From: Sulfurimonadaceae bacterium
Lineage (GTDB): Bacteria > Campylobacterota > Campylobacteria > Campylobacterales > Sulfurimonadaceae
Length of the DNA stretch: 20,131 bases
Assembly (NCBI GenBank): GCA_041548245.1
Contig: JBFESZ010000031.1
Location: 1-20,131 of the forward strand
Direction of reading: 5' to 3'
Numbering within the stretch: the first letter of the stretch is position 1; every line of letters begins with the position of its first letter. Under the pieces are notes generated by a model that made no database searches, had not been told where the DNA came from, and saw nothing but the letters and a program-made list of their open reading frames with translations. Below, piece by piece: positions 1,691 to 15,590 of the stretch. A program made the position numbers and the translations under genes.

Positions 1691-2038
1691 ATGAAAACGG
1701 TAATATTTTTATGGGGTCTTACGATGGCTTTTTTTGCGTGTACTGGCGACTGCCTTACCTGCCATCCGAATTTGGCCACTACAATCAAAGAGGATAAACG
1801 TCATAAACCTATGATGACCTGTATCAACTGCCACTCCGCCGATCCCAACAGCATGGCTGATTGCGGCAGTGACTGTTTTGCCTGTCATCCTATGTCCAAG
1901 ATCAATGGACTGGGCATTAAAGAACATGAGGTGATACAGGGATGCAGGGACTGTCATGTGGCCTTAAAGCAGGAACTTTATGGTATCTCTGAGAAAGGCC
2001 AATCTACTCTAAAAGAGACGCTTTTTAACCCGGATTAG
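1691..2038 (+). CDS. Small exported tetraheme c-type cytochrome
   Basis: N-terminal signal peptide and four CxxCH motifs (CLTCH, CINCH, CFACH, CRDCH) in 115 aa. Confidence 0.85.
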   Translation: MKTVIFLWGLTMAFFACTGDCLTCHPNLATTIKEDKRHKPMMTCINCHSADPNSMADCGSDCFACHPMSKINGLGIKEHEVIQGCRDCHVALKQELYGISEKGQSTLKETLFNPD

Positions 2039-2042
2039 AGCC

Positions 2043-2573
2043 TTATGCGTAATAAGGCTCTTCAGCCTTATCAAGCTGTTTAAACATCTGTTCTAAAAAC
2101 CGTTGTGCATGTGAAAGTATGGTCTCTGTTTGTTCAAGCGGCTTGAACTCTTTATCCAAGGCCTTGTCCATACCCTTTACAAGTCCACTCTTTGTGAAAT
2201 TCAAAAGGTTTTGGTTATTTGCTTCTCTGACGGGTCTGAATATCTGCGTAATATCTTGTGTCAGCTGATTGATAGGCTGAATTAAAGAGGAGCCATCATT
2301 TAATCCTGCTACAAAGTTGTCAATACTTGGTTGTGCTACTTTTAAAAATGCTTCAATCTCTTTTTTGTCCTGAGCATCAATGCCGTTGCCTTCATAGTGA
2401 AATGAAAAAGATTCCATGGAAGAAAAGGAAAAAGATTTTTGGTGATCACTTGCGCTGTATTGTAAAGACTTCTCATTATTGAAGTCGAGTTCAATGATAT
2501 CCCCGCTGCTTGTTCTGATGTCGATAGACAGTACATGTTGTGAATAAGTGGCTAGGGCGTTGGTTACATTCAT
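2043..2573 (-). CDS. Conserved Campylobacterota hypothetical protein, probably in the flagellar (sigma28) regulon
   Basis: 176-aa ORF. Motifs RTSSGDIIEL and FHYEGNGIDAQDKKEIE resemble, from recall, a Campylobacterota family often mislabelled 'ATP/GTP-binding protein'; no P-loop is present. A sigma28 promoter lies upstream. Confidence 0.7.
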   Translation of the reverse strand: MNVTNALATYSQHVLSIDIRTSSGDIIELDFNNEKSLQYSASDHQKSFSFSSMESFSFHYEGNGIDAQDKKEIEAFLKVAQPSIDNFVAGLNDGSSLIQPINQLTQDITQIFRPVREANNQNLLNFTKSGLVKGMDKALDKEFKPLEQTETILSHAQRFLEQMFKQLDKAEEPYYA

Positions 2574-3995: not shown

Positions 3996-5228
3996 CTATT
4001 TCATTGTTAAAGCTCTTAAAGCCAAAGCCGTCGCATTGGCACGGCCGTACCAGTTGAAATTAAAAAGACCAAAGGCTTCTCCGCCAAAGAGAGAATGCTT
4101 TGAGGGAAGATAAGCATACTCTTCTCTTTGCACAATGCCTTTTTTTAGCTCATTTTCCAAAGAAGCGATCAGACGCCTCAGAAAATAGCCTCTTTCATTT
4201 TCAGTTTTAAGGCTTTTTAGGATGATAATGTACTCAGCCATTTCGGTGAAGTAGTTCAGTCCGGGGTGTTCCAAAAGATAACGTGCCCGTTGCTTCGCTC
4301 GCGCAAGAATAAGTTTCTTATCCTCTTCCAGGCAAAAGGTGTCGGCTGTATAAGCTTTGGCATAGGCAAGGTAGAAGTGCGAAGGGCGAGTATACCAAGT
4401 GGCACATCTATCCTCTTTATTCAACTGGATGATCTCATGTATTAGACGGCAGGAAGCCTCTTTCGCTTTTCTTGTTGGTAAAGGCAGTGTTGCGAGGTTG
4501 TTCTCATATAAAGAGAGGGCAGTGAGGATGTTCAGGTTGACAACACAATCAACATCGTTGATGAGATCCATAATTCGGTTGATCGGTTTAGCCGGAGCCT
4601 CCTCTTCTGCCCAAGTCATGAAGGCACCGCTGTTTGGTTCTTTCCATTGCAGGTTTAAGGGGTGCTCAACTGAACGGTTCAGGTCGGTGAAGTGGCTAAG
4701 GGTATGGACAAAGCCATCAAGAAATGTTTTGTCCTGATGATCAAGATATAACCAGACAAAAGCCTGTGAAGAGGTATCGAAGTCGTTACCGACATTGAGA
4801 ATACGCATGGACGTGTTATACCATTTGGTATCGAAGCTTCGTATCCAATTTCCCTCATCATCTTGCAGCAAAGGCCAAAAAGCGATAGTACCCTTGGGTT
4901 CACTTGTCTGTTGAGCGTCCTTGATATAATTGCTGATCTGTCTGTTAGCCGAGGAGAAGAGATTCTGTATAGAGGGGAGATCATATTCCTGATTGACCTC
5001 ATGCAAGAGGATAAGGGTTTGCAGGGTCATGAAAGCATTGGACTCGGGTATCTCTTTACGTGCACCGTCATACATGGGATAGCTTGGCCATGTACCCAGA
5101 TATCTCTCTATAGGGTGTTCGGCTATTTGATTCTTCTGTATGTAGGCATAAAGTTTGGCTTCAAGAGGAGGAAGGCTTTGAGCGGCCCATAGATTCAGGC
5201 CGATTAAAACAAGTATAAAGAGACGCAC
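3996..5228 (-). CDS. Exported alpha/alpha-toroid protein, terpene cyclase/prenyltransferase-like (function unknown)
   Basis: GTG start overlapping the yceI TAG. Signal peptide; motifs GTWPS, IAFWP, NDFDTS, GAFMTW, NDVDCVVNLNIL and a C-terminal WYGRANATALALRAL. The ORF is solid; the fold is inferred. Confidence 0.55.
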   Translation of the reverse strand: MRLFILVLIGLNLWAAQSLPPLEAKLYAYIQKNQIAEHPIERYLGTWPSYPMYDGARKEIPESNAFMTLQTLILLHEVNQEYDLPSIQNLFSSANRQISNYIKDAQQTSEPKGTIAFWPLLQDDEGNWIRSFDTKWYNTSMRILNVGNDFDTSSQAFVWLYLDHQDKTFLDGFVHTLSHFTDLNRSVEHPLNLQWKEPNSGAFMTWAEEEAPAKPINRIMDLINDVDCVVNLNILTALSLYENNLATLPLPTRKAKEASCRLIHEIIQLNKEDRCATWYTRPSHFYLAYAKAYTADTFCLEEDKKLILARAKQRARYLLEHPGLNYFTEMAEYIIILKSLKTENERGYFLRRLIASLENELKKGIVQREEYAYLPSKHSLFGGEAFGLFNFNWYGRANATALALRALTMK

Positions 5229-5764
5229 TATCTGAGTAGTACTGCTTTGGCGAAGATGTCGACATTATCCTCTACACACAAGGCAAAAACAAGCAGACAC
5301 GGTGCTTCCACATTATAGTCGCTTAATAGGATCTTGGATACGGCACTGATCGTTACCGTATCCTCCTGAAGCAAGATCTCCGCATCAAAGTCAAGCTCCT
5401 TTTTAACACCATGAAAATCAAGCATGCCATTGAGGGTATAAGCGTTTGTCTCTTTTGCTTTATGGATACCGGTGATCGTATAAGATGCGAGTGGAAACTT
5501 TTCTGCTTCGGTCGTCTCGTGCATGTTCTCATCACGATCACTGTTGTCACTCATGAAGAGACTCAGCTCAACAGAGAGTTCACCTGTGATACTGGTGATA
5601 TCATCACCCGAAATGTTTAAATTGGCATGCAGGCTATGATTGAGCGGATCGATCGTACTGTCACCAAGGACTTCAGTATGTGCGGCTACGAAACCCTCTT
5701 TGAGTTCTAGGTTCCCTGCAAAGAGCGAAAAGCTCAAGAGTAAGAGAAGTGAAAATGTTTTCAT
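5228..5764 (-). CDS. yceI: YceI-family (polyisoprenoid/lipid-binding beta-barrel) periplasmic protein
   Basis: Signal peptide; SDNSDRDENMH, AEKFPLASY, LNGMLDFHGVKKEL and LLSDYNV match the YceI signature; AAGGA RBS. Confidence 0.9.
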   Translation of the reverse strand: MKTFSLLLLLSFSLFAGNLELKEGFVAAHTEVLGDSTIDPLNHSLHANLNISGDDITSITGELSVELSLFMSDNSDRDENMHETTEAEKFPLASYTITGIHKAKETNAYTLNGMLDFHGVKKELDFDAEILLQEDTVTISAVSKILLSDYNVEAPCLLVFALCVEDNVDIFAKAVLLR

Positions 5765-5782
5765 GGATCATCCTTTGAATAA

Positions 5783-5791
5783 ATTATAGCA
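5783..5791 (-). promoter_or_regulatory. Extended -10 promoter (TGcTATAAT) for yceI
   Basis: Minus strand TGCTATAAT-ttattca-AAGGA-tgatcc-ATG. Confidence 0.6.
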
Positions 5792-5794
5792 CGT

Positions 5795-6703
5795 TTAATG
5801 CAAACTTTTTGACAAGGCGATAGCAAGGCCGAGACCGGACGCTATCCATGCAATAAAGACCATCAGTTGCGAAAGTTTTAAGAGGCTTGTCTCTTTGCTT
5901 AAGGTCATAAACACGATGACATTATAATAAGAGATCGTAAAAGGATATATGACGGACAAAGCCAGTTTCCATTCAAAGTAGGAAAATATATAGCTTGCTA
6001 TAAAAAGTAGGGCAATCAAGAGATGTTGTCTGTTCTCACTGATCTTGACAAATGAAGCACCCAAAAGACCAAGAAGGTGAAAGGCGATGATGGTGTAAGT
6101 GTTCTCACTCCAGATGTGTAGTCCTTGATGGCGGGAAAGGGTCTCAAAAAGATTGGAATCAAGCATGATCCACAGCATCAACGGAACATAAGAGATTAAA
6201 GGGCTTTCTTTTTTAGGGTCATCATGTCCGACCTTATATTTACGCAGTAAGATGGCACTGCTGAGTGCCGCTGTTGAAAAGACAACCGCCATCCATTCTC
6301 TATGATCGGCCAAAGAGGTAAAGGCGTATGTTCCTATGGTATAGGCAATGGCCAAAGCAGAGAGAAGTTCGTAATGCTGATGCTCTTTAAAAAGGTAGAT
6401 ACCCAAAGGAGCCATTAATCCGACGGATATCCCAAAGAGTAACAGAGTGAATGGGTTATAGTCCGGATATAAAAAAGAGAGCAGCAGTTGCATGCTTAAT
6501 GCGATGATGATCTTGTGGACAGGGTTGGTGATTTTCCCCCATCTATAACCGCTTAAAAGAGTCCCAAGAATACCTCCGGCAAAGAGTGGGGAAAGTGTTA
6601 CTAGATCTGAATGATAATGCTCCGCAATACCCGTCTGGATGATCAGAAGGTAAAAACTGAGTTCGAACCCAAGCAGTACTACTAGTGCAAACGAGTGAAT
6701 CAT
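5795..6703 (-). CDS. Compact MFS-like integral membrane protein (about 11 TM)
   Basis: 302 aa, almost entirely hydrophobic segments in two halves joined by a charged linker (RKYKVGHDDPKKES). ATGA overlap with the upstream gene. Confidence 0.6.
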   Translation of the reverse strand: MIHSFALVVLLGFELSFYLLIIQTGIAEHYHSDLVTLSPLFAGGILGTLLSGYRWGKITNPVHKIIIALSMQLLLSFLYPDYNPFTLLLFGISVGLMAPLGIYLFKEHQHYELLSALAIAYTIGTYAFTSLADHREWMAVVFSTAALSSAILLRKYKVGHDDPKKESPLISYVPLMLWIMLDSNLFETLSRHQGLHIWSENTYTIIAFHLLGLLGASFVKISENRQHLLIALLFIASYIFSYFEWKLALSVIYPFTISYYNVIVFMTLSKETSLLKLSQLMVFIAWIASGLGLAIALSKSLH

Positions 6704-8241
6704 AGACGATGCCTCATCAGAAGATAAAACAGGGCATAGAAAATGTCATACACACCGACAAAAAGCCCAAGAATATCAATGCCTTGGGCATAGAACAGAG
6801 TCAAAAAAACAGTTCCCGTTATCAGGCGTGCCAAGGAGGTCAGATGGGCTAAAAGATGAGCATGTCTGTCGATGCCAACAAAGTGTAAGATACCGACAAA
6901 TCCCATAAACCCAAATACAAGATAATAGTGTACATCAAAGACAAAACCCAAAAGGGCAAAGAGGTAAGAGCCAAAAAGAAAAAGGATAAGGGCACCAATA
7001 CCATCAGAAGCAAATCCGATCAGGTGATAAAGCTGTAGCAAGGAGGGCTTAACATAGGCTGTTTTTTGGAATATGAAATAGATTAGACCCAAGACAGAGA
7101 CGATGCCAGCGATAAGACGCAGCCACCATAGCAGAGTTACATCAAGCTGTATAAGGTCTGCTTCGACAAAGCCGGCAAGACTCAGCGGTATAAAGATAAG
7201 GGCTATGATATAGAGCCAGAAGTGGGCAAACTTTTTAGGCAGTTGATAAAAATAGCTCAATATACTCAAGGCCATAAAGACGATGCCCAGTCCGATAGCG
7301 ACATGGGCATGGGCTACGATGAGGTCGTTTCTATGAAAGAGCCATCGAAGTTCGGGAATGAAAAGAATGTTACCTTCTATCATCACAAACAGAAAGGCCC
7401 AGATAGATATGACAAGGTAAGGGGTATCAGAAAGGCTGAGTTTGGCATCCCTGCACCACTTGATAAGGAGCGGTGCATAGGCAAAGGTCATCCATTGGAA
7501 GACCCACTCTTCAGCGTAAGAGAGCTCTCCCCTAAAGATACGAAGCGCTACAGAAAGGGCATAGGCACCTAAAGGAAGTATCCAGAAGATATCCCAGGCG
7601 GCGTTGAACTTCTCTTTGGCATGCAGTTTTATCATAAGATAAAACAACGGAATCATGGTGAAGCTCATTCCCAGGGTATTGTCTCCGTGCGGACCTGAAA
7701 GCGTCTTTTCAACCTGGCCATAACTCGGGTTCATCAAGACAAGAAGCGAAATTGGTGCGATAAAGATCAATGCTTTTGAAACCTTAACCCACAGTGGAGG
7801 AACGTCATACTGCCTGATGACTTTAAAGATGGCGATTATATAGAATATTCCCGAAGAAGCCAGAAGAAAATTAAGCTCATAGGCAAAGTCATAAAAAGGC
7901 AGACCTCTTTGTATTCCCAAAAGAATAGAGATAGTGGCCATAAAGAGAAAGAGGTGCCACAGTAAAAAATAGTTCCGTAGCGGGGCACCGGCCGGTTGCA
8001 AATCAAGCCTGTCTTTTGAAAAGAGTGCAAAAGGAAGGAGTGAAAGGGCAAGCATGACTGGCCCGTAGAGCATGAGTGTGATGTGCAGTGAACGGGTTCT
8101 GATGGGCTGAAGAAGCGTGTCATCAAACAGGGTGAATCCCACAAGTTGGGCGGCATAGATTACGCCAACAAGAACAGAAGCAAAAAATATCCATGCCCAG
8201 AGGGGGACAATGGAGTGAATGAGTTTATGAAAGGTGTCCAT
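6700..8241 (-). CDS. Divergent heme-copper oxidase superfamily subunit I-like protein (CcoN/NorB fold) lacking the CuB/FeB histidines
   Basis: Helix II RSLH (R50/H53), GIQRGLPFYD loop, helix VI HGDNTLGM (compare CcoN YGHNAVGF), EGNIL..FHRNDLIVAHAH (H303, H311, H313), and the terminal WLRLIAG helix. No His-His pair in helix VII. Confidence 0.8.
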   Translation of the reverse strand: MDTFHKLIHSIVPLWAWIFFASVLVGVIYAAQLVGFTLFDDTLLQPIRTRSLHITLMLYGPVMLALSLLPFALFSKDRLDLQPAGAPLRNYFLLWHLFLFMATISILLGIQRGLPFYDFAYELNFLLASSGIFYIIAIFKVIRQYDVPPLWVKVSKALIFIAPISLLVLMNPSYGQVEKTLSGPHGDNTLGMSFTMIPLFYLMIKLHAKEKFNAAWDIFWILPLGAYALSVALRIFRGELSYAEEWVFQWMTFAYAPLLIKWCRDAKLSLSDTPYLVISIWAFLFVMIEGNILFIPELRWLFHRNDLIVAHAHVAIGLGIVFMALSILSYFYQLPKKFAHFWLYIIALIFIPLSLAGFVEADLIQLDVTLLWWLRLIAGIVSVLGLIYFIFQKTAYVKPSLLQLYHLIGFASDGIGALILFLFGSYLFALLGFVFDVHYYLVFGFMGFVGILHFVGIDRHAHLLAHLTSLARLITGTVFLTLFYAQGIDILGLFVGVYDIFYALFYLLMRHRL

Positions 8242-8848
8242 CTTTCATCCTTATAGTCTGTGTTGCAAATTTTTCAATCTGTATATCATGTGAAGCGACC
8301 ACAACAGTGGTCCCATTGTTTGAAGCCTTTGCCAAAAGCTCGTAAACGATCTGTGTGTTCTTGGAGTCAAGACTTCCCGTAGGCTCATCTGCGAAGATTA
8401 TCGCAGGTTCGTTGATCAGTGCTCTTGCGAGGGCCACGCGTTGTCTCTGCCCGCCTGAGATCTCATTGGGATAACGTGAAGACAGCTCTAATATACCTAG
8501 ATCACGTAATAAGTCGTCAATGTTTGCTTTTTTCTCTTTCAAAGCAGCCAGGACAATGTTCTCATAGACACTGAGATAATTGATCAGGTAGTGAAACTGA
8601 AAGACAAAACCGATCTGGTTCTGACGAAAGCGATCTATGTCTTTTATATCTTCGATCAGCCTATTGTCCAAACGAAGCTCGCCTTTTGAAGGGTGTAACA
8701 AGGTAGACAGAATGGATAGCAGGGTCGATTTTCCGCTTCCGCTCTCTCCGCTTAAAAAGACAAACTCACCGGGATTGATCTTCAAGGAGACATCAAAGAG
8801 AACCTGTTCATTACCGTAAAGATGGGAGATGTTATTAGCCTCTATCAT
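8225..8848 (-). CDS. ABC transporter ATP-binding protein, LolD/MacB-type
   Basis: Walker [19 protein letters not shown], signature [27 protein letters not shown]-loop ASHD. Start reassigned to the ATG at 8848 (TGATG overlap with the permease stop). Confidence 0.93.
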
Positions 8849-9921
8849 CAGGAACATCCTTGATTGATCAAAATGATAGGATCCGTCTTTGAAGCAATCC
8901 AAGCAGGTATCAGTGTACCGATAAGGGCCATACCGATGGTAGATATCAGGACATAAAAAGACGAAGAGAGGGACAAAGAACCATTGACATAGCCTTGCAA
9001 CATCTCTATATGCGGCAATGTTTCCAGTACCAACAGACTCAGTACAAGCGCAAAGAGGTAGGCTGTGAAACTCATGATAATTGTCTCAAAAAAGAGGTTC
9101 TTGATGATAAACAGACGGCTTTTACCCAGGGCTCGCATGATACCGAACTCCTCTTTTCGGGAGTTTACGATCATGCTCATCACGGAAGCGATTCCCATCA
9201 GTCCCATGGTAAAGGCCAAAGAAGAGATGACGAAAGAGGAATTCTCAATGATCTTGAACTGGTTGTATTCCTGTACAAAGCTTTGCGTTGTCTTGACGTC
9301 GGTCTCCGTATCCAAGGTGGCGATCTTTTCTTTAATCTCATCAGTGTATTTAGGCGATTGTGCGGAAACAAGAATAAAGGAAGCGGAACGGCTGAAGAGG
9401 GTACCTGCATCTTCAATGTTCATAACAACACCTCCTTCTTCAAACCCGATATCACTGGTGTATGAGCCTGATATCTTAAAACGTCGGTTCCCTATCTTGA
9501 CACTTTTGCTGCGAAGCTGTTTGGATAGGGTCCTGCCCAGAAGCACTTCACCCTGTTTCGGGTATTTCCCCTCTTGAAGTTTGTAATGAGTAAGGTGATT
9601 CTCACTCACCCCGTAGATGCCGGCGATAGGAATATGTCCTACGGGAGAAGCACCGACGATCATGGCATAGCTTGATTTGACATGTTCAATCGCATTGATG
9701 TCTTGCATCAAATCAATATTGACATTGGAGAAGAAAGTATCGGCAATACCCCGTTGCGTAATGATGATATCCCCATCCGTCTTGATCATCTTTGAATACA
9801 TCCCGATCACGCCTTGAGAGATCGAGGTGATCAAAAAAATAGCCATCACGGCAATGGTGATGGAAGAGAAGATTAAAAAGCTTTTGAATGGGTTTTTTGA
9901 TAGTGCCTTAAGAGACATCAT
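8848..9921 (-). CDS. ABC transporter permease, MacB/FtsX family
   Basis: N-terminal TM helix, large periplasmic domain (EGKYPKQGEVLLG), RKEEFGIMRALG, three C-terminal TM helices, IPAWIASKTDP. Confidence 0.92.
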   Translation of the reverse strand: MMSLKALSKNPFKSFLIFSSITIAVMAIFLITSISQGVIGMYSKMIKTDGDIIITQRGIADTFFSNVNIDLMQDINAIEHVKSSYAMIVGASPVGHIPIAGIYGVSENHLTHYKLQEGKYPKQGEVLLGRTLSKQLRSKSVKIGNRRFKISGSYTSDIGFEEGGVVMNIEDAGTLFSRSASFILVSAQSPKYTDEIKEKIATLDTETDVKTTQSFVQEYNQFKIIENSSFVISSLAFTMGLMGIASVMSMIVNSRKEEFGIMRALGKSRLFIIKNLFFETIIMSFTAYLFALVLSLLVLETLPHIEMLQGYVNGSLSLSSSFYVLISTIGMALIGTLIPAWIASKTDPIILINQGCS

Positions 9922-10388
9922 CGCTCAATGGCTGATTTCAGTTCATTAAGTGTCAAAATATAATCAATACTATCAACTTTTTCATCTTTGATGCGTAGAA
10001 TCGTCAGTTTTCCTTCTTTATGCGGTACAAAGTTCTCAAACTGGTCTTCGTAGTGAAGATAGATGGGATGTTTGTACTTTTGCATCTTTGGCAGGGCGAA
10101 CATGGTGGTGATAATGGAAGGCATTCTATTGATATCGGCAATAAAGACGGCATTATGATCGACGATATAGCTTGATTTCTTTGTGTCAAGATAGTCATTG
10201 ACCAAAGCACCGGTGTCTTTTTCAAAAGAGACAATTACGAGTTTCGTTGCTGAAGGGATCTGCATCGGATATTTGTGCTGGTTTTCGTACTTGTAGGGCT
10301 TTAGTTTGTTTAGATGTGTCCCGACACCCAGTGTTTCAGCGGCAAAGAGAGTAAATGATAAAGTCAGTATCAAAAATAGTGTTTTCAT
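9918..10388 (-). CDS. Exported thioredoxin-like-fold protein without cysteines
   Basis: Signal peptide; peroxiredoxin/TlpA-like start (LGVG..YKYENQH..KLVIVSF) and conserved-looking VFIADINRMPSIITTMFALPKM; AAGGA RBS; ATGA overlap with the permease. Confidence 0.6.
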   Translation of the reverse strand: MKTLFLILTLSFTLFAAETLGVGTHLNKLKPYKYENQHKYPMQIPSATKLVIVSFEKDTGALVNDYLDTKKSSYIVDHNAVFIADINRMPSIITTMFALPKMQKYKHPIYLHYEDQFENFVPHKEGKLTILRIKDEKVDSIDYILTLNELKSAIER

Positions 10389-10415
10389 TAATGTTTCCTT
10401 TTTAGGTGATAGACG

Positions 10416-10421
10416 ATTATA
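10416..10421 (-). promoter_or_regulatory. Candidate -10 box heading the 10388-5795 operon
   Basis: Minus strand gcTATAAT, then AAGGA and the ATG at 10388. Confidence 0.55.
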
Positions 10422-10432
10422 GCGTTTATTTA

Positions 10433-11179
10433 TTACAAAATGGTAAGGACAGGTATCTCACTTGGCGCTTTGTAACGAATCTGTACTCCCCAGTAGCCCA
10501 AACCGCGTGTGACGTATAAAAGTGTCTTGCCATGAATATATTGACCTGAAAAATAGGGCTGAAACCGTTTGACAAGTTTGTTGAAAGGGTAGACTTGTCC
10601 GGCATGCGTGTGTCCGCTTAGCTGGATGTCAATACGATAGTTGGAGGTGTGTTCAATGTCTTTTGGCTGATGGGCCAATAGAATCGTCGAGATGTTTTCA
10701 TCAAGACGAGAAAAGAGCTCATCGATCGGACGTTTTACTCCTCTGGCAAAACTGTAGCGGTCACTCAATCCGACCAGCTGTAAAGGAGTATTATTGATAT
10801 TTAAGATAGCAATACTGTTATCCAGGCATGTAATGCCGTTTTGGTTCATTTCCTTTTTGAGCATATTAGGCCCATAGACGATGTCATGATTCCCGGTGAC
10901 ATAATAGGCCGCCGCTTCCAAAGCCTTAAAGGCATGGAAGTGTTTGCGAAGACGAAAGGCAAAAGTCTGGAGAATGTCGCCCGTGAAGACGACAATATCC
11001 GGATGCAGTGCATTGATCTTTTTGACCAGGTTTTCGAGATAGTGGATATCAAAACTCTTTTTCATATGTAAGTCTGAGAGCTGCACGATACGAAGTCCCT
11101 TAAGCTCATCTGCAAAGTTGCCAGGCTGAAGTGTAATCTCTTCAAAGGGAAAATTTTTCCATCCCGTCTGCAGACTCAT
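10433..11179 (-). CDS. Calcineurin-like metallophosphoesterase (YkuE/YaeI-type)
   Basis: Motifs SDLH, TGD, GNHD, LLAHQP, SGHTHAGQ, YVTRGLG and SEI. Confidence 0.93.
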   Translation of the reverse strand: MSLQTGWKNFPFEEITLQPGNFADELKGLRIVQLSDLHMKKSFDIHYLENLVKKINALHPDIVVFTGDILQTFAFRLRKHFHAFKALEAAAYYVTGNHDIVYGPNMLKKEMNQNGITCLDNSIAILNINNTPLQLVGLSDRYSFARGVKRPIDELFSRLDENISTILLAHQPKDIEHTSNYRIDIQLSGHTHAGQVYPFNKLVKRFQPYFSGQYIHGKTLLYVTRGLGYWGVQIRYKAPSEIPVLTIL

Positions 11180-12141
11180 ACTTTGCTCCAGAGTTTTTCA
11201 TTGAGTTTCAGCTCGTGTACGATACCTATGGCAAGTTTCAAGGTCGAAATATACTCTTGTACCAGCTTATAATCAAGCAAAGAGCTGAAGACGGTAGGCT
11301 CAAAGAGGTCTTTTTTGTATTCAAGTGCGAGATATATTTGGGCGTTGTTAAAACTGACATACAGAGGTACGCTGGAGCGTTTTTTAAAGTCCAAAAGCCT
11401 TTTCATCATGGCATGCGTAAGAATATAACGCGCTTCGATCTGGTTGGTGCCGTAGACGACAAAATGTCGCTCGAAGGTCGGATCATCCATCTTGATCAAA
11501 GCTTCCTGAGAGATATTGTTACGCTGCAGCCATGAACCGATGATCTTTCCGAATAATTTTTCGGCCTTGTCGGGAAGGATGGTCGTGCGTCCTTTGAAGT
11601 CCTTGTTAAAATCAGCGATAATAAAGAGGCCTTGAAAGATCGTATGCCAAGAAGTCCTTCCTTTTGAATCTTTGCTCTTGTATTCGGCATGGACATCTGA
11701 GAACCTTAGATTGACTCCATCTATCTGACCCTTGACAAGATCATTGCCGCTGTAACGGTCTATGCGCTTTCTAAAGAGCTTTGATCGTTCAAAATGGGTC
11801 TGGGAGACACAGAGTGTTTTGCTGTATTGTAAGGAGGCATCGATCTGTTCAATGAGGGGATGGATGATATTGTCTTTAAACTCATGAGCGTAGTCTTTGC
11901 TCATGACTTTTTTGATCCATATGAAAAGTGCGAACCCGATGAAAATAGGAGCAAGATCACTCTCAGAGTGTGAATTTGAGCTGTTAAAAAAAGCATAGGT
12001 GATCCCCATAGATATGAGGGCGATTCCTATGCCGATATAGATCAGTTTTTTTGCCAGCTTCTTTCGGTCATCTTCTAGTTTTTTCAGATCGGGATGAAGT
12101 TCATTGTAAAAAAAGTTGGTCAGTTCACTGATCTTTTTCAT
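11176..12141 (-). CDS. DUF3137 domain membrane protein
   Basis: Two N-terminal TM helices; TIFQGLFIIADFNKDFKGRT, MDDPTFERHFVVYGTNQIEARYILT; located directly downstream of lemA. Confidence 0.85.
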   Translation of the reverse strand: MKKISELTNFFYNELHPDLKKLEDDRKKLAKKLIYIGIGIALISMGITYAFFNSSNSHSESDLAPIFIGFALFIWIKKVMSKDYAHEFKDNIIHPLIEQIDASLQYSKTLCVSQTHFERSKLFRKRIDRYSGNDLVKGQIDGVNLRFSDVHAEYKSKDSKGRTSWHTIFQGLFIIADFNKDFKGRTTILPDKAEKLFGKIIGSWLQRNNISQEALIKMDDPTFERHFVVYGTNQIEARYILTHAMMKRLLDFKKRSSVPLYVSFNNAQIYLALEYKKDLFEPTVFSSLLDYKLVQEYISTLKLAIGIVHELKLNEKLWSKV

Positions 12142-12152
12142 TCGATGGTAAC

Positions 12153-12707
12153 CTATCTTTCAAACAGCTCTTTGACATTGACGTTTTGACGTGCACTTTC
12201 TTCTGCTTCGAACACCGCTTTTCGTGTGTAGCGCATGAAGCTCGCCATGAAGTTTGTAGGAAACATCTCAATCGCGTTGTTGTAGTCTGTAACCGCCTGG
12301 TTATAGGCACGTCTTGCTGCAGAGATCTGTGCTTCAACTTCTGTTAAAGTACGTTGCAGGTGCATGATGTTCTCATTGGCTTTGAGATCCGGATAATTCT
12401 CCACTGCGACCATGATGGAACCGAGTGCTCCTGTCATCTGTCTGTCCAGCTCAATCTTCTTTTCATCACTCAGACCTGGTTTCATCGCCTGCGAACGCCA
12501 TTGTGTGATCTTTTCGAGAAGCTCTTTTTCATGTGACATGTATTGCTGTACGCTCGAGACTAGGTTAGGGATCAGATCATAACGTTTCTTCAGTACGGTA
12601 TCAACACTGGCAAAGATGTTTTCAACCTGGTTTTTATGCGAGACGAGGGTGTTGTACATCAAGACCAGTGCAAGTGCGACAACGCCGATAATAATCCATG
12701 CAATCAT
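12153..12707 (-). CDS. lemA: LemA family protein
   Basis: N-terminal TM helix; LKKRYDLIPNLV, VENYPDLKAN, ISAARRAYNQAVTDYN and FPTNFMA. Confidence 0.96.
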   Translation of the reverse strand: MIAWIIIGVVALALVLMYNTLVSHKNQVENIFASVDTVLKKRYDLIPNLVSSVQQYMSHEKELLEKITQWRSQAMKPGLSDEKKIELDRQMTGALGSIMVAVENYPDLKANENIMHLQRTLTEVEAQISAARRAYNQAVTDYNNAIEMFPTNFMASFMRYTRKAVFEAEESARQNVNVKELFER

Positions 12708-13420: not shown

Positions 13421-14356
13421 TTAAGGCAATTCGATGTTTTCTTGAGGTTTGTCCCCGAGCATGTTGTTCAGGCGCCCCGACAGTTCTGTGACTTCGTCAA
13501 GCCAGACGTTCATCTCATCTTTAAAGTAGCTGATGTCTTTTCCCGATTCACCTAGGACTTTAACCGTATCATCGATCTGAATCAGTTTAGAGCGGATGTC
13601 TTGCAGGATAAGTTCCAGTTCGCGCATATTGGTATGGGCGGGTTTGATAATCTCTTTACGTATCTCAAGGACACCTTTGTCCGTGTTTTGAACAAGAGAA
13701 CGAAGATCTTTTAAAACGACATTGAGTGTCGTCAAGGAGTGGTGAAACTCTTTCGCACTTTGGGTATCTCCGGTAAAGGTATGCAACAGATCAGGTGAAC
13801 TTGAGAGTCTGTATGAAAAGTTTTCCAAATGTTTAAGGGACATTTGAAAGCTTGCGTTTTGATCAGCCAGTGAAGCAGTGATCATATCCGCATTGCGTAC
13901 GATGTTTTGAAGTTCAACGACGACAGGCTGAATATTGGAGATAAGTTCATCGATACCATCCTTGATATGCATACGAAGAATGCTCTTTTCATTGAGCGGA
14001 GGACTTGACATGGAAGAGGTAAGTGTGATCTTTGGTTTTCCTATCAGGGGTTTTTCAAGAACAAAAAGCGCATCAGAACGCACCCACTTGGTATTATGTT
14101 CGGCAATTTTAATAAGGATAAGAACCTCACCGTTTTCGTAGAGGGAAAGCTCGTCGACCTGACCGATTTCAAAACCTGAGAAAAGTATGGGCATCCCCTC
14201 TTCGATCTCTTCGGCATTCTTGGAGACAAGCTTGTAATATATCTGTTTTTCAAAGACACCTTTTTTCTCTATTACATAAAAAAGTGAGATCAGGATAAGC
14301 ACCGAGCTTACGATGATGAAGATACCGACACTGAGGACTATCTTTCTATATGGCAC
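13421..14356 (-). CDS. mlaD: MlaD/MCE family protein with long helical C-terminal region
   Basis: N-terminal TM helix (VGIFII), MCE motif AEEIEEGMPILFSGFEIGQV..PLIG, heptad-rich C-terminus; AAGGAG RBS with GTG start. Confidence 0.88.
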   Translation of the reverse strand: MPYRKIVLSVGIFIIVSSVLILISLFYVIEKKGVFEKQIYYKLVSKNAEEIEEGMPILFSGFEIGQVDELSLYENGEVLILIKIAEHNTKWVRSDALFVLEKPLIGKPKITLTSSMSSPPLNEKSILRMHIKDGIDELISNIQPVVVELQNIVRNADMITASLADQNASFQMSLKHLENFSYRLSSSPDLLHTFTGDTQSAKEFHHSLTTLNVVLKDLRSLVQNTDKGVLEIRKEIIKPAHTNMRELELILQDIRSKLIQIDDTVKVLGESGKDISYFKDEMNVWLDEVTELSGRLNNMLGDKPQENIELP

Positions 14357-14787
14357 GAAATCTCCTTATATCGGCTTTGCTGATTTTTCAAGTCGATGAT
14401 AACTACCTGTTGATAAGGTATAAGCAAGACATCCAAGGCATCAAGTATAAAGTTGATGTTATTCTCTTCTGTCAAAAAGGAAAAAGGCTGGTCGATAACA
14501 ATTTTAGCACCTTTCTTTTCAAAAGCACGTATGAGTTGAACATAAAAGATATCTTTCTTGCTACAGACGTCATAACGCAGTGATGCTATGGAATCGAGTC
14601 CAAGCGATTGGAGTGCATCGTACGCTCTCTTCTTGGCACTTTTGCGGCTGAGGTGCTCGTGTACCTGTGTAATCAGCATAATGTTCTCTATCATGCTCAA
14701 GTTGGAGAGCAGTGGAGTTGATTTTGATACCAAAGCATACTCTTCATTCAAATAGGCATCCTCTTTGTAAAGATTAAGCTCATGCAC
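14338..14787 (-). CDS. Truncated, degenerate ABC ATPase-like protein in the MlaF position (start possibly ATT at 14823)
   Basis: PLLSNLSMIENIML, LQSLGL, CSKKDIFYVQLIRA (eroded signature) and IVIDQPF (Walker B/D-loop with E to Q). No Walker A. Confidence 0.72.
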   Translation of the reverse strand: MHELNLYKEDAYLNEEYALVSKSTPLLSNLSMIENIMLITQVHEHLSRKSAKKRAYDALQSLGLDSIASLRYDVCSKKDIFYVQLIRAFEKKGAKIVIDQPFSFLTEENNINFILDALDVLLIPYQQVVIIDLKNQQSRYKEISCHIER

Positions 14788-14801
14788 ACCGGAAAAGAGT
14801 T

Positions 14802-15590
14802 TTATAGATATTGAATCAGTAATAGTACCACCTCGATAGACATAATAGCTATGACAAGCTTTACCATTCCGTTTAAAACAGCGATGGGAACACCGGTATA
14901 GTTCATAGCGGTACGCAATCCGCTGTAAATGGGTACCAGGGTCACAAAAAAACCAAACAGCAAGCTTTTAGAGAATAGAAGGATAAAGTCATCGATGCCA
15001 ATAGCATGCATCAGCGTTCTGATATACAGGTCTGCACCGGTTTGATAAAAGAAGAAAAGGTAGATATAGCCGCTTAAGAGCATAATGATGCTTAAGAGCG
15101 AAGCCAACATGATAAGAGAGATGATACCGGCGATAATACGAGGCAAAAACAGGTATTCAATCATATCAATCTTAAAGGCTTTTAATGTGTTAAGCTCATT
15201 AGAGACCTTCATGACGGCTATTTCGGTATTGATGGCAGCACCTGAGCGCAGGGCGACGAGTAAAACGGTACTCAAAGGTGCGACTTCGTTTAGGACAATA
15301 CGGATAATAAAGGTGCCCAGATGGTCTTTGAGACCATAATCGAGTGCAAAGTGCACAATCAAGGCGATAATGATGGTACCGAAAACGACACCTAGAAGAA
15401 GAAGTAGAGGCAGCACCTGAACAGCGGTAAAGTAGATCTGTTTGATTAGGATGTCCTGGGTGGCAGAATTGTAAGCGCCTCTTTGAAATATCTTAAAGAG
15501 ACATTGATAGGTAAAGTAGAGTGCTTCGTAGAAGATATTTAAAAAACGAAGGGTCAGTTCACCAAGGTTCTCTATCGATTTAATAATCAT
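14802..15590 (-). CDS. mlaE: MlaE-family ABC permease
   Basis: QIYFTAVQ, EVAPL..LLVALRSGAAINTEIAVMKVSNELNTL, YLFLPRIIA, KSLLFG. Confidence 0.93.
   Translation of the reverse strand: MIIKSIENLGELTLRFLNIFYEALYFTYQCLFKIFQRGAYNSATQDILIKQIYFTAVQVLPLLLLLGVVFGTIIIALIVHFALDYGLKDHLGTFIIRIVLNEVAPLSTVLLVALRSGAAINTEIAVMKVSNELNTLKAFKIDMIEYLFLPRIIAGIISLIMLASLLSIIMLLSGYIYLFFFYQTGADLYIRTLMHAIGIDDFILLFSKSLLFGFFVTLVPIYSGLRTAMNYTGVPIAVLNGMVKLVIAIMSIEVVLLLIQYL

Follow-up and report, generated by a model that had tools for sequence, protein, structure and literature searches.

Do the seven open reading frames (ORFs) on the minus strand between positions 10388 and 3996 of a contig of a Sulfurimonadaceae bacterium (JBFESZ010000031.1) form a single envelope system, and what could such a system do? 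The whole stretch analysed, hereafter the window, is 20,131 bases long. An initial annotation, made from the sequence alone, had proposed here a pathway built from a haem-copper oxidase (HCO)-like protein, a MacB/FtsX ATP-binding cassette (ABC) transporter, a small protein of the major facilitator superfamily (MFS) type ('mini-MFS'), YceI and two further exported proteins. We find here a single envelope gene module that is conserved among free-living Campylobacterota. Five genes form its invariant core (FtsX-type permease, ABC ATPase, HCO-like protein, mini-MFS and YceI); often joined to these are genes for a cysteine-less exported 156-aa protein and a cytoplasmic metallophosphoesterase and, in most lineages, for a two-component system of the OmpR type. 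The module is apparently undescribed; each of its parts comes from a known superfamily. Full-text literature searches, with subscription journals and supplements outside their scope, turned up neither this module nor an HCO family of these bacteria that lacks CuB, and the combination, for which the initial annotation knew no name, still has none in the literature searched.

Conservation of the module

A profile search of species-representative genomes with the HCO-like protein gave 211 confirmed loci, the best 80 of which were taken for analysis. These cover four Campylobacterota families; they belong to Sulfurimonas and other Sulfurimonadaceae, Sulfuricurvum, Sulfurovaceae, Sulfurospirillum and Arcobacteraceae, and all but two carry Campylobacterota labels (the exceptions are L036, a 'Proteobacteria bacterium', and L029, a metagenome record), a few of the other labels probably being wrong. 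Sixteen window proteins were searched against the 80 loci with tblastn. A gene was counted if it shared the strand of the HCO-like gene and lay no more than 8 kb from it, and only in loci whose length covers its expected position; the fractions for genes outside the core refer to 54 full-flank loci with at least 4 kb upstream and at least 6 kb downstream.

The order FtsX, ABC, HCO-like, mini-MFS, YceI is constant in every clade, as judged from a crude ORF clustering of the neighbourhoods, and the counts for the single genes are given in Table 1. Outside the module, the window genes were present in 0-3 of the 80 loci, and the outer flanks consist of different gene families in Sulfurimonas, Sulfuricurvum/Sulfurovaceae, Sulfurospirillum and Arcobacteraceae. 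The same core order turns up in 65-79 of 67-79 evaluable related loci, which is more than chance would give. Sequence identity among the loci falls to about 45% for the HCO-like protein and to about 30-35% for the mini-MFS and YceI. Taken together, the sharp module boundaries, this divergence and the overlapping codons described below argue for a functional unit, and we consider it almost certain that the module is real and functionally linked. Co-occurrence in other genomes had been set beforehand as the test of the proposed unit, and the core genes do occur together in the 80 related loci.

A FastTree phylogeny of the HCO-like protein (75 locus proteins plus that of the window, the five loci with truncated HCO-like ORFs being left out) largely tracks bacterial families. 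The window protein falls in a Sulfurimonadaceae subclade and is 86% identical to that of L001. No tblastn match to the HCO-like protein was found in a plasmid collection. The accessory genes vary in position. In Sulfurimonas, the 156-aa gene and the phosphoesterase gene lie upstream of the module; in Arcobacteraceae both lie downstream of yceI, so that the 156-aa gene shifts position together with the phosphoesterase between clades. Sulfurospirillum has the phosphoesterase downstream of yceI and no tblastn match to the 156-aa gene. The core itself is split in a few loci: two ORFs, a HAMP-type kinase and a regulator are inserted between the HCO-like and 302-aa (mini-MFS) genes in L026 and L031, and the 156-aa gene separates these two genes in L043.

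It is conceivable that an ABC exporter, an orphan oxidase remnant and yceI stand side by side by shared ancestry only. In favour of this, one phylum supplies all the evidence and three of the seven proteins have no assigned function. We nevertheless regard it as extremely improbable: the order persists while every flank changes, stop and start codons overlap and one putative operator precedes both halves of a split module (see Regulation). In addition, the 12-sequence alignment A1 of the HCO-like protein holds about 113 invariant columns, so this protein is under strong constraint and is not a remnant.

Gene layout and junctions

The initial annotation gave correct positions for all seven ORFs, for their four overlaps, for the TAG/GTG junction and for the TATAAT boxes (Table 1). 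As read from the sequence, the 156-aa and permease genes are joined by ATGA at 9918-9921 and the permease and ATPase genes by TGATG at 8846-8850, with a second in-frame ATG at 8857; the ATPase of the relatives starts at the equivalent of window 8851-8857. The ATPase and HCO-like genes overlap by 17 nt (8225-8241), the HCO-like stop overlaps the 302-aa start in ATGA at 6700-6703, and the yceI stop is coupled to the GTG start of the 410-aa gene in TAGTG at 5226-5230. Only the 302-aa and yceI genes are separated, by 30 nt (5765-5794) in the window versus 3 nt in L005.

Table 1. Features of the module and its surroundings in the window, with their occurrence in related loci (tblastn)
Feature	Position	Strand	Place in module	Basis and remarks	Related loci
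Metallophosphoesterase, YaeI/LpxG-like	10433-11179	-	frequent accessory	Pfam Metallophos	43/54 full-flank
GCTATAAT, promoter-like -10 box	10416-10423	-		sequence reading; 27 nt 5' of the 156-aa start, then AAGGA	
Exported 156-aa protein without cysteine	9918-10388	-	accessory	ORF	41/54 full-flank
Predicted MacB/FtsX-type (type VII) ABC permease, 357 aa, with periplasmic core domain	8848-9921	-	core	MacB_PCD, FtsX	73/73 evaluable
ABC ATPase	8225-8857	-	core	ABC_tran; alternative starts ATG 8848, TTG 8902 (longest ORF)	79/79 evaluable
HCO-superfamily subunit-I-like protein, 513 aa, 16 predicted transmembrane helices	6700-8241	-	anchor	fold and profile comparisons	
302-aa polytopic membrane protein (mini-MFS), predicted compact MFS-like fold	5795-6703	-	core	fold search	68/68 evaluable
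TG-extended GCTATAAT box	5783-5790	-		sequence reading; in the 30-nt gap 5' of yceI	
Exported YceI-family barrel protein, 178 aa	5228-5764	-	core	Pfam YceI	65/67 evaluable; absent in L061, L077
Exported 410-aa orphan protein	3996-5228	-	lineage-specific add-on outside conserved core	GTG start	2/54 full-flank; 4/80 overall
CysZ-like gene					1/54 full-flank

The 30-nt gap contains TGcTATAAT, and cGCTATAAT followed by AAGGA precedes the ATG at 10388. Three copies of the 8-mer GCTATAAT are present in the window, all on the minus strand and in intergenic gaps, namely 5' of the 156-aa gene, of yceI and of the downstream cysZ-like gene; the mean in shuffled sequences was 0.56 and three copies were reached in 1 of 100 shuffles. 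The box 5' of yceI is a possible internal promoter specific to the subclade of the window. A TATAAT box stands at the same place 5' of the module in most Sulfurimonas-type loci (upstream-sequence listing, uncounted). A generic -35/-10 scan of the window gave 21 sites versus 15.6 expected, and the promoter and terminator scan did not rise above shuffles. The base composition is even across the region, and Rfam gave no match at gathering score over the whole window.

The HCO-like protein

The HCO-like protein is the polytopic membrane protein at the centre of the module. In the Pfam and NCBIfam scans of the window proteins, in which each score was compared with the cut-off of its model, it matched COX1 (PF00115) weakly (E 8.9e-4, 18.7 bits vs 34.8). 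Some relatives bear a precomputed PF00115 label, and their source names are 'hypothetical protein' or 'cytochrome c oxidase subunit 1-like'. The family is narrow, with 79 profile-search matches at E<=0.001 among 1.84 billion representatives; only five of these are full-length 50%-identity clusters, the rest being fragments. A few distant relatives turned up as well, including the true cbb3 subunit P0193. A PDB sequence search with the family profiles returned chance matches only (E 0.81).

The AlphaFold2 model (pLDDT 87.3, pTM 0.86) has 16 helices, with uncertainty only in the loop 175-190. Its best PDB folds in a Foldseek search are CcoN chains of cbb3 oxidases (6xkw_n and 3mk7; E 2.3e-7 to 3.6e-6, TMt 0.63-0.65), then NorB of the cytochrome c-type NO reductase cNOR (4xyd_A and 3o0r_B), and A- and B-type oxidases and qNOR rank lower. 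An hhalign comparison with a profile of 14 cbb3 CcoN sequences aligned 401 columns with a probability of 97% (E 1e-10). The modelled structure thus supports a twelve-helix subunit-I fold of the cbb3/NOR type, and the label 'HCO-like' of the initial annotation is borne out. Four extra C-terminal helices carry invariant D413, H453, R472 and D499.

The histidine ligands expected for a low-spin haem (helices 2 and 10) and a high-spin haem (helix 10) are present in the alignment. H53 aligns with the CcoN helix-2 haem ligand and H311 and H313 with the helix-10 HxH, while H303 and D306 align with the conserved CcoN H..D just ahead of it. H53, H303, H311 and H313 are kept in 76 of 76 sequences and D306 in 75; H185 and H453 are invariant or nearly so across the same set. 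Helices 5 and 6 are connected by a loop bearing the invariant motif GPHGDNTLGMS (183-193); by analogy with HCO topology, this loop should face the periplasm. E245 and Q249, in helix 8, are likewise invariant.

The histidines of the copper or iron site (CuB/FeB) follow a different pattern. In the stretch from 185 to 303, even the column richest in His has it in only 41 of the 76 sequences. The helix-6 His of CcoN falls in an 11-column gap of the hhalign alignment, and the helix-7 Tyr-x5-His-His aligns, with low confidence, with Y227 (76/76), the variable position 233 (His in 11/76) and R234 (75/76). From the sequences, at least two of the three CuB/FeB histidines are absent, whatever the exact alignment. 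The initial annotation, which had placed chemistry at the haem site, overlooked the loss of the canonical CuB histidines. On this ligand pattern, the protein probably has two haems and no CuB; we infer that the haems are of b type and that copper is not bound.

In the portion of the gNOR study that we draw on (PMC11214002), the active-site histidines are described as completely conserved in all HCO families except gNOR, which replaces one, and this replacement of a single histidine is called unprecedented, the first such case. With at least two of three CuB/FeB histidines missing, the HCO-like family would therefore lie outside the catalytic types described there (PMC11214002).

A working oxidase or NO reductase variant for the detoxification of NO or O2, served in assembly or protection by the ABC transporter, the mini-MFS and YceI, has to be weighed against this. 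The fold is nearest to cbb3 CcoN and cNOR NorB, all three haem ligands are invariant and Y227 aligns with the CcoN helix-7 Tyr. Moreover, several different HCO active sites are compatible with NO reduction in the same portion of PMC11214002. Yet the sequences leave room for no more than one of the three CuB/FeB histidines here, where the replacement of one in gNOR already counted as a first in that text (PMC11214002), and the Pfam COX1 score stays under its cut-off. No CcoO/CcoP, NorC or CuA subunit, and no cytochrome c, was found among the recurrent neighbour families of the 80 loci. We consider this explanation unlikely; the neighbours related to NO are taken up under Regulation.

A second, distant HCO-like family (P0177, P0186, P0188 and P0198) is 19-22% identical to the window protein and has weak or no Pfam annotation. 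It has the helix-2 and helix-10 histidines in common with the HCO-like protein, together with a related loop motif, and two of the four members contain an HGHxSHH stretch in the helix-7 region.

The ABC transporter

MacB-type transporters (LolCDE, HrtBA and MacB) act on outer-leaflet or periplasmic cargo. In the module, the permease matched Pfam MacB_PCD (PF12704; 56.4 bits) and FtsX (PF02687; 53.1 bits), both above the cut-off, and the ATPase matched ABC_tran (PF00005; E 1.2e-35, 123.5 bits), with Walker A, signature and Walker B all present in the translation. The FtsX four-helix domain, the periplasmic core domain and the intact cognate ATPase place the pair, by sequence, in the MacB/FtsX type VII class, in agreement with the initial annotation. 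Matches to named subfamilies fell below their cut-offs. The permease scored 59.3 bits against NCBIfam lolCE (cut-off 362.45) and 17.3 bits against the MacB equivalog (966), and its PDB sequence matches were weak and to MacB-type permeases only. The closest NCBIfam models of the ATPase, LolD, DevA and FtsE, all remained below cut-off (LolD, 181 bits vs 307.75). No gene for a membrane-fusion protein (MacA) or a TolC-type channel was found among the annotated recurrent neighbour families of the 80 loci.

The mini-MFS, YceI and accessory proteins

The 302-aa protein has no Pfam match in any of 19 family members at E<=1, and no NCBIfam or PDB sequence match. Its AlphaFold2 model (pLDDT 91.6) shows about 10-11 helices, short of the twelve of MFS transporters, and all 48 rows listed in the PDB fold search are MFS transporters (TMq 0.52-0.68), including VMAT2 (E 1.3e-5), VAChT, LacY, PfHT1, MdfA and EfpA. 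The name 'mini-MFS' is thus supported at the level of the predicted fold. Among look-alikes, a single cluster carries MFS_1, on 10% of its members. Invariant polar positions of the 302-aa protein include D182, E187, R191 and H209, the last being the only invariant His. Co-folding of the HCO-like protein with the mini-MFS gave a score of 0.00, which bears neither for nor against binding.

YceI is assigned by Pfam PF04264 (E 1.4e-14, 55.1 bits vs a cut-off of 23.7), as the initial annotation had it. The protein missed the E. coli YceI equivalog (22.3 bits vs 232), and its PDB sequence search was empty. Solved YceI structures hold polyisoprenoid chains, and E. coli yceI adjoins a gene for a dihaem cytochrome b561. 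Signal-peptide-like N-termini were seen by eye in the translations of YceI, the 156-aa protein and the 410-aa protein.

The 156-aa protein was described initially as a Cys-less thioredoxin fold. It contains no cysteine indeed; the fold rests on a language-model atlas lead to YtfJ_HI0045 (PF09695; score 0.90, rank 30), which we take to be a thioredoxin-like family. Relatives were aligned (A4), and no NCBIfam or PDB sequence match was obtained for the family; Pfam gave, in 14 members at E<=1, four unrelated single-member matches (E 0.006-0.16). It is an orphan family, possibly YtfJ- or thioredoxin-like.

The 410-aa protein, a 'cyclase-like enzyme' in the initial annotation, does not belong to the conserved set (Table 1) and is a lineage-specific orphan add-on. 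Its relatives form 65 clusters from Sulfurimonas-like sources, the few named ones being 'hypothetical protein' and none having a precomputed Pfam domain. Neither the protein nor its profile (alignment A5) had a match in NCBIfam or in the PDB sequence search, and Pfam at E<=1 gave scattered single-member matches only. In A5, C228 and C275 are invariant, and C260 and C299 occur in at least 90% of rows.

The metallophosphoesterase (Pfam Metallophos, E 1.4e-14) scored 109 bits against NCBIfam YaeI and 112 bits against LpxG, both below cut-off. The motifs DxH, GD, GNHD and GHTH are present and no signal peptide was seen in the translation. In ten Sulfurovaceae and Sulfuricurvum loci without it, a gene for a metal-dependent hydrolase of about 305 aa with a metallo-beta-lactamase (MBL) fold adjoins the module (L060, 12910-13830; L043, 242-1213; and eight further loci), and may be a non-homologous replacement. 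In the window, the phosphoesterase gene is joined by a 4-nt overlap to an upstream DUF3137 gene; LemA, DUF3137 and phosphoesterase genes are tightly packed at 10433-12707 (minus strand), with an 11-nt gap before that overlap. In other Sulfurimonas loci, a DUF3313 gene or a divergent Ysc84-like gene precedes the phosphoesterase.

These proteins could also be read as a system for handling haem or another tetrapyrrole, in which an HrtBA-like extractor and a haem-binding polytopic protein would move haem between the membrane and the periplasmic barrel, loosely as in CcmAB/CcmC/CcmE/CcmG. In size and build, the permease and ATPase match MacB-type pairs that stand alone, and neither a fusion-protein gene nor a TolC gene accompanies them; invariant histidines lie in the membrane (H53, H311 and H313) and in periplasmic loops (H185 and H303). 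The module also encodes a barrel in the periplasm and an exported protein that may be thioredoxin-like. However, the alignment of H303/D306 and of the helix-10 His pair with conserved positions of CcoN makes these residues look like inherited cofactor or metal ligands rather than a transport path. Furthermore, YceI is known for isoprenoid and lipid ligands, not haem, and the 156-aa protein is Cys-less and missing from 13 of the 54 full-flank loci. The analogies with the Ccm and Hrt systems notwithstanding, haem handling appears quite improbable.

Regulation

An OmpR-type regulator and a histidine kinase are encoded near the module in most loci. In Arcobacteraceae, the regulator and then the kinase follow directly 3' of the phosphoesterase, in the same direction, in about 20 loci; this kinase combines two membrane segments with a periplasmic and a HAMP domain. 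In the one pair scanned (L045), the regulator scored best with cztR_silR_copR (249.9 bits, cut-off 279) and HprR (221.6 bits), both below cut-off, and the kinase reached 236.4 bits with cztS_silS_copS (cut-off 292.6). No invariant His, Met or Cys was found in the sensor domain of 18 aligned Arcobacteraceae kinases, leaving copper sensing unsupported.

A direct repeat, TTCAT-N6-TTCAT, usually in two to four copies at 11-bp spacing, stands just upstream of FtsX. Of 72 evaluable loci, 29 have it in the 220 nt preceding FtsX; these are Arcobacteraceae, Sulfurospirillum and a few others. Examples of the repeat lie at 8251-8277 in L045, at 8246-8261 in L047 and at 7804-7819 and 15291-15306 in L026. 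In 1.36 Mb of loci there are 68 matches, 42 of which fall on the coding strand in the 220-nt stretches upstream of FtsX. In the split modules L026, L031 and L043, the repeat is also found 5' of the 302-aa gene, and the first half is likewise preceded by it in L026 (5' of the 156-aa gene) and L031 (5' of FtsX). Its presence before both halves is therefore sequence evidence for their co-regulation. Extra copies lie in L045, L061, L073 and L077, apparently just upstream of the regulator gene (gene coordinates checked for L045 only). The repeats are probably the operator of the linked OmpR-family regulator. They may resemble the DccR site of C. jejuni; a text search on this likeness gave nothing relevant. 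Of the gene set, the initial annotation had correctly named the five core genes and missed the linked metallophosphoesterase, the two-component systems and their probable operator.

These data bear on another possibility, a module for envelope stress or for resistance to metals, oxidants or hydrophobic toxins, with a CusRS/CopRS/HprRS-like switch, a MacB-type pump, a small MFS exporter, YceI as a 'lipocalin' capturing hydrophobic compounds and the haem protein as a quinol-linked electron sink or repair enzyme, like MsrQ in E. coli. It would account for the best scores of the L045 pair being with heavy-metal models, for the co-directional regulator-kinase pair directly 3' of the module and for the 11-bp spacing, which is typical of OmpR-family sites; lipocalins of the YceI family capture antibiotics. 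Those scores are below the family cut-offs, however, and the periplasmic sensor offers no invariant metal-binding residue of the kinds sought; the Sulfurimonas kinase is of another type, and the window has none. Since it also leaves the HCO-derived protein unexplained as the invariant centre, we judge this explanation improbable.

A cytoplasmic, divergently placed kinase with an ODP di-iron domain (PF19583, E 2.7e-61) is found in 15 Sulfurimonas loci, and in 11-15 of these it is followed by genes of the haem d1 type (tetrapyrrole methylase, cytochrome d1 domain and radical SAM/SPASM). The ODP kinase may be an O2-, NO- or Fe-sensing regulator of nitrite reduction, and because it adjoins the haem d1-type genes it may belong to these rather than to the module. 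Six Arcobacteraceae loci have an upstream gene of the YgbA_NO family. Both observations could be cited for the oxidase or NO reductase variant considered above, but these NO-related neighbours are clade-specific and absent from the window.

The ODP kinase was also considered as the general regulator of the module, and was rejected: the ODP N-terminus occurs in 15 of 54 kinase ORFs, all Sulfurimonas-type and beside haem d1-type genes. In L005 (13760-18958) and 14 similar Sulfurimonas loci, the ODP kinase and a regulator lie between the module and the haem d1-type genes. Downstream of the Arcobacteraceae regulator pair, genes for DUF1924, a dihaem cytochrome c (DHC) and cytochrome b561 are found in L045 (19726-20653), L051, L057 and L063, a trio that we take to be the SHP/DHC/cytochrome b cluster.

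Proposed mechanism

The explanation that we prefer joins the conserved module to a mechanism that draws on family knowledge, namely the cargo of MacB-type transporters, the polyisoprenoids of YceI and the pairing of yceI with b561. The HCO-like protein would be a two-haem, copper-free membrane redox protein whose active site, an Arg/Tyr-lined haem pocket, would open to the periplasmic side and perform a chemistry other than O2 or NO reduction at a binuclear centre. Together with the translationally coupled mini-MFS, it could act as one membrane redox and transport core. Powered by ATP hydrolysis in the cytoplasm, the MacB-type transporter would carry a lipophilic or amphiphilic molecule between the outer leaflet and YceI, the barrel in the periplasm, much as LolCDE hands cargo to LolA. 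An isoprenoid quinone would be our first choice of cargo, with haem or a lipid as alternatives, and YceI would supply or remove a substrate, cofactor or product of the haem protein. Envelope or redox signals, relayed by the linked two-component systems, would control expression. The pathway of the initial annotation, in which a lipid, quinone or haem would be modified at the haem site, then extracted and passed on to carriers, is likewise compatible with these parts.

As a whole, conserved module and mechanism together, this is the best explanation we have, at somewhat less than an even chance. The hand-off of a lipophilic molecule from extractor to YceI, tied to haem chemistry, is drawn by analogy and is a tentative proposal in which our confidence is low. 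A stronger version would see in the module a new membrane machine: the first HCO branch without a binuclear centre, with an Arg/Tyr-lined, copper-free high-spin haem pocket and a non-O2, non-NO chemistry on a lipophilic or anionic substrate, obligatorily coupled to the ABC extractor, the mini-MFS and YceI. This we consider rather doubtful.

Several points weigh against this explanation. Gene order is the sole link between the mechanism of the ABC transporter and the haem protein. The 80 loci, the best of the 211 confirmed, come from one phylum, so that they cannot be counted as independent events. Confidence in the CcoN alignment is low across helices 6-7, and the invariant loop H185/D187/N188 could build a non-canonical metal site. 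As for regulation, the window has neither a two-component regulator or kinase nor the TTCAT element. The kinases are not orthologous across clades (ODP in Sulfurimonas, periplasmic sensor and HAMP in Arcobacteraceae), and some of them may instead belong to adjacent gene sets such as the haem d1 or SHP/DHC clusters.

To our knowledge, the HCO scaffold is known only as an O2 or NO reductase. A constrained family that keeps both haem sites without the copper or iron site would widen the view of its roles. Likewise, an operon with an HCO-like protein would provide a concrete partner for YceI and the stand-alone MacB-type transporters, which are widespread and poorly understood. As sampled so far, the module is confined to Sulfurimonas, Sulfuricurvum, Sulfurovaceae, Sulfurospirillum and Arcobacteraceae; these hosts live at sulfidic/oxic interfaces, and the module may therefore have a part in their response to redox stress. 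Since several of the hosts are in culture, this is open to experiment.

Other genes of the window

Three further genes of the window deserve mention. In an Mla-like operon (13421-15590), a 149-aa ATPase-like gene lies between MlaE and MlaD (14338-14787, minus strand). Its product matches only the C-terminal two-thirds of ABC ATPases and has no Walker A region; the signature and Walker B look degenerate, and there is no space for the missing N-terminal half. At 1691-2038 (plus strand), a 115-aa exported small tetrahaem cytochrome c with four CxxCH motifs is encoded, with weak Pfam and NCBIfam matches. The 176-aa protein at 2043-2573 (minus strand) has a sub-threshold match to CiaI, of Campylobacter intracellular survival (E 4.3e-13, 49.5 bits vs 290).

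Comparison with known systems

The HCO-like protein has the 12-helix subunit-I fold in common with cbb3 CcoN and cNOR NorB, its best PDB matches, and keeps the helix-2 His, the helix-10 HxH and the preceding H..D of CcoN. It differs from CcoN in lacking the helix-6 His and the helix-7 His-His (an 11-column gap in the first case and an invariant Arg at one position in the second), and from both in its four extra C-terminal helices. Whereas CcoN and NorB have CcoO/CcoP or NorC partners, the HCO-like gene has none of these nearby and is always operonic with an ABC transporter.

With LolCDE, HrtBA and FtsEX, the transporter has in common the four-helix FtsX domain, the MacB periplasmic core domain and a separate LolD/FtsE-like ATPase, and likewise no adaptor or outer-membrane channel gene lies nearby. 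The co-encoded periplasmic barrel protein finds a parallel in LolA of the Lol system. Nevertheless, the scores are far below the cut-offs of the LolCE, FtsX and MacB equivalogs (59 bits vs 362), which argues against a LolCDE lipoprotein release system at the equivalog level, and the ATPase gene overlaps that of the haem protein. The module does not appear to encode a MacAB-TolC tripartite pump, as genes for MacA and the outer-membrane channel are lacking from the annotated recurrent neighbour families.

In the assembly of cbb3 oxidases, CcoA is an MFS copper importer and SenC-type proteins are thioredoxin-fold copper chaperones. An MFS-fold protein and a possibly thioredoxin-like exported protein are likewise encoded with the CcoN-like protein here. 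In contrast, the mini-MFS, with its 10-11 or so helices, lacks a conserved Met/His copper motif, cysteine is absent from the 156-aa protein, and the CcoN-like protein itself appears to have no copper site. The yceJ-yceI pair of E. coli offers a further likeness, as it also sets a YceI barrel beside a polytopic protein predicted to hold two b-type haems. There the haem protein belongs to the b561 family, whereas here it belongs to the HCO superfamily and is set between an ABC transporter and a mini-MFS.

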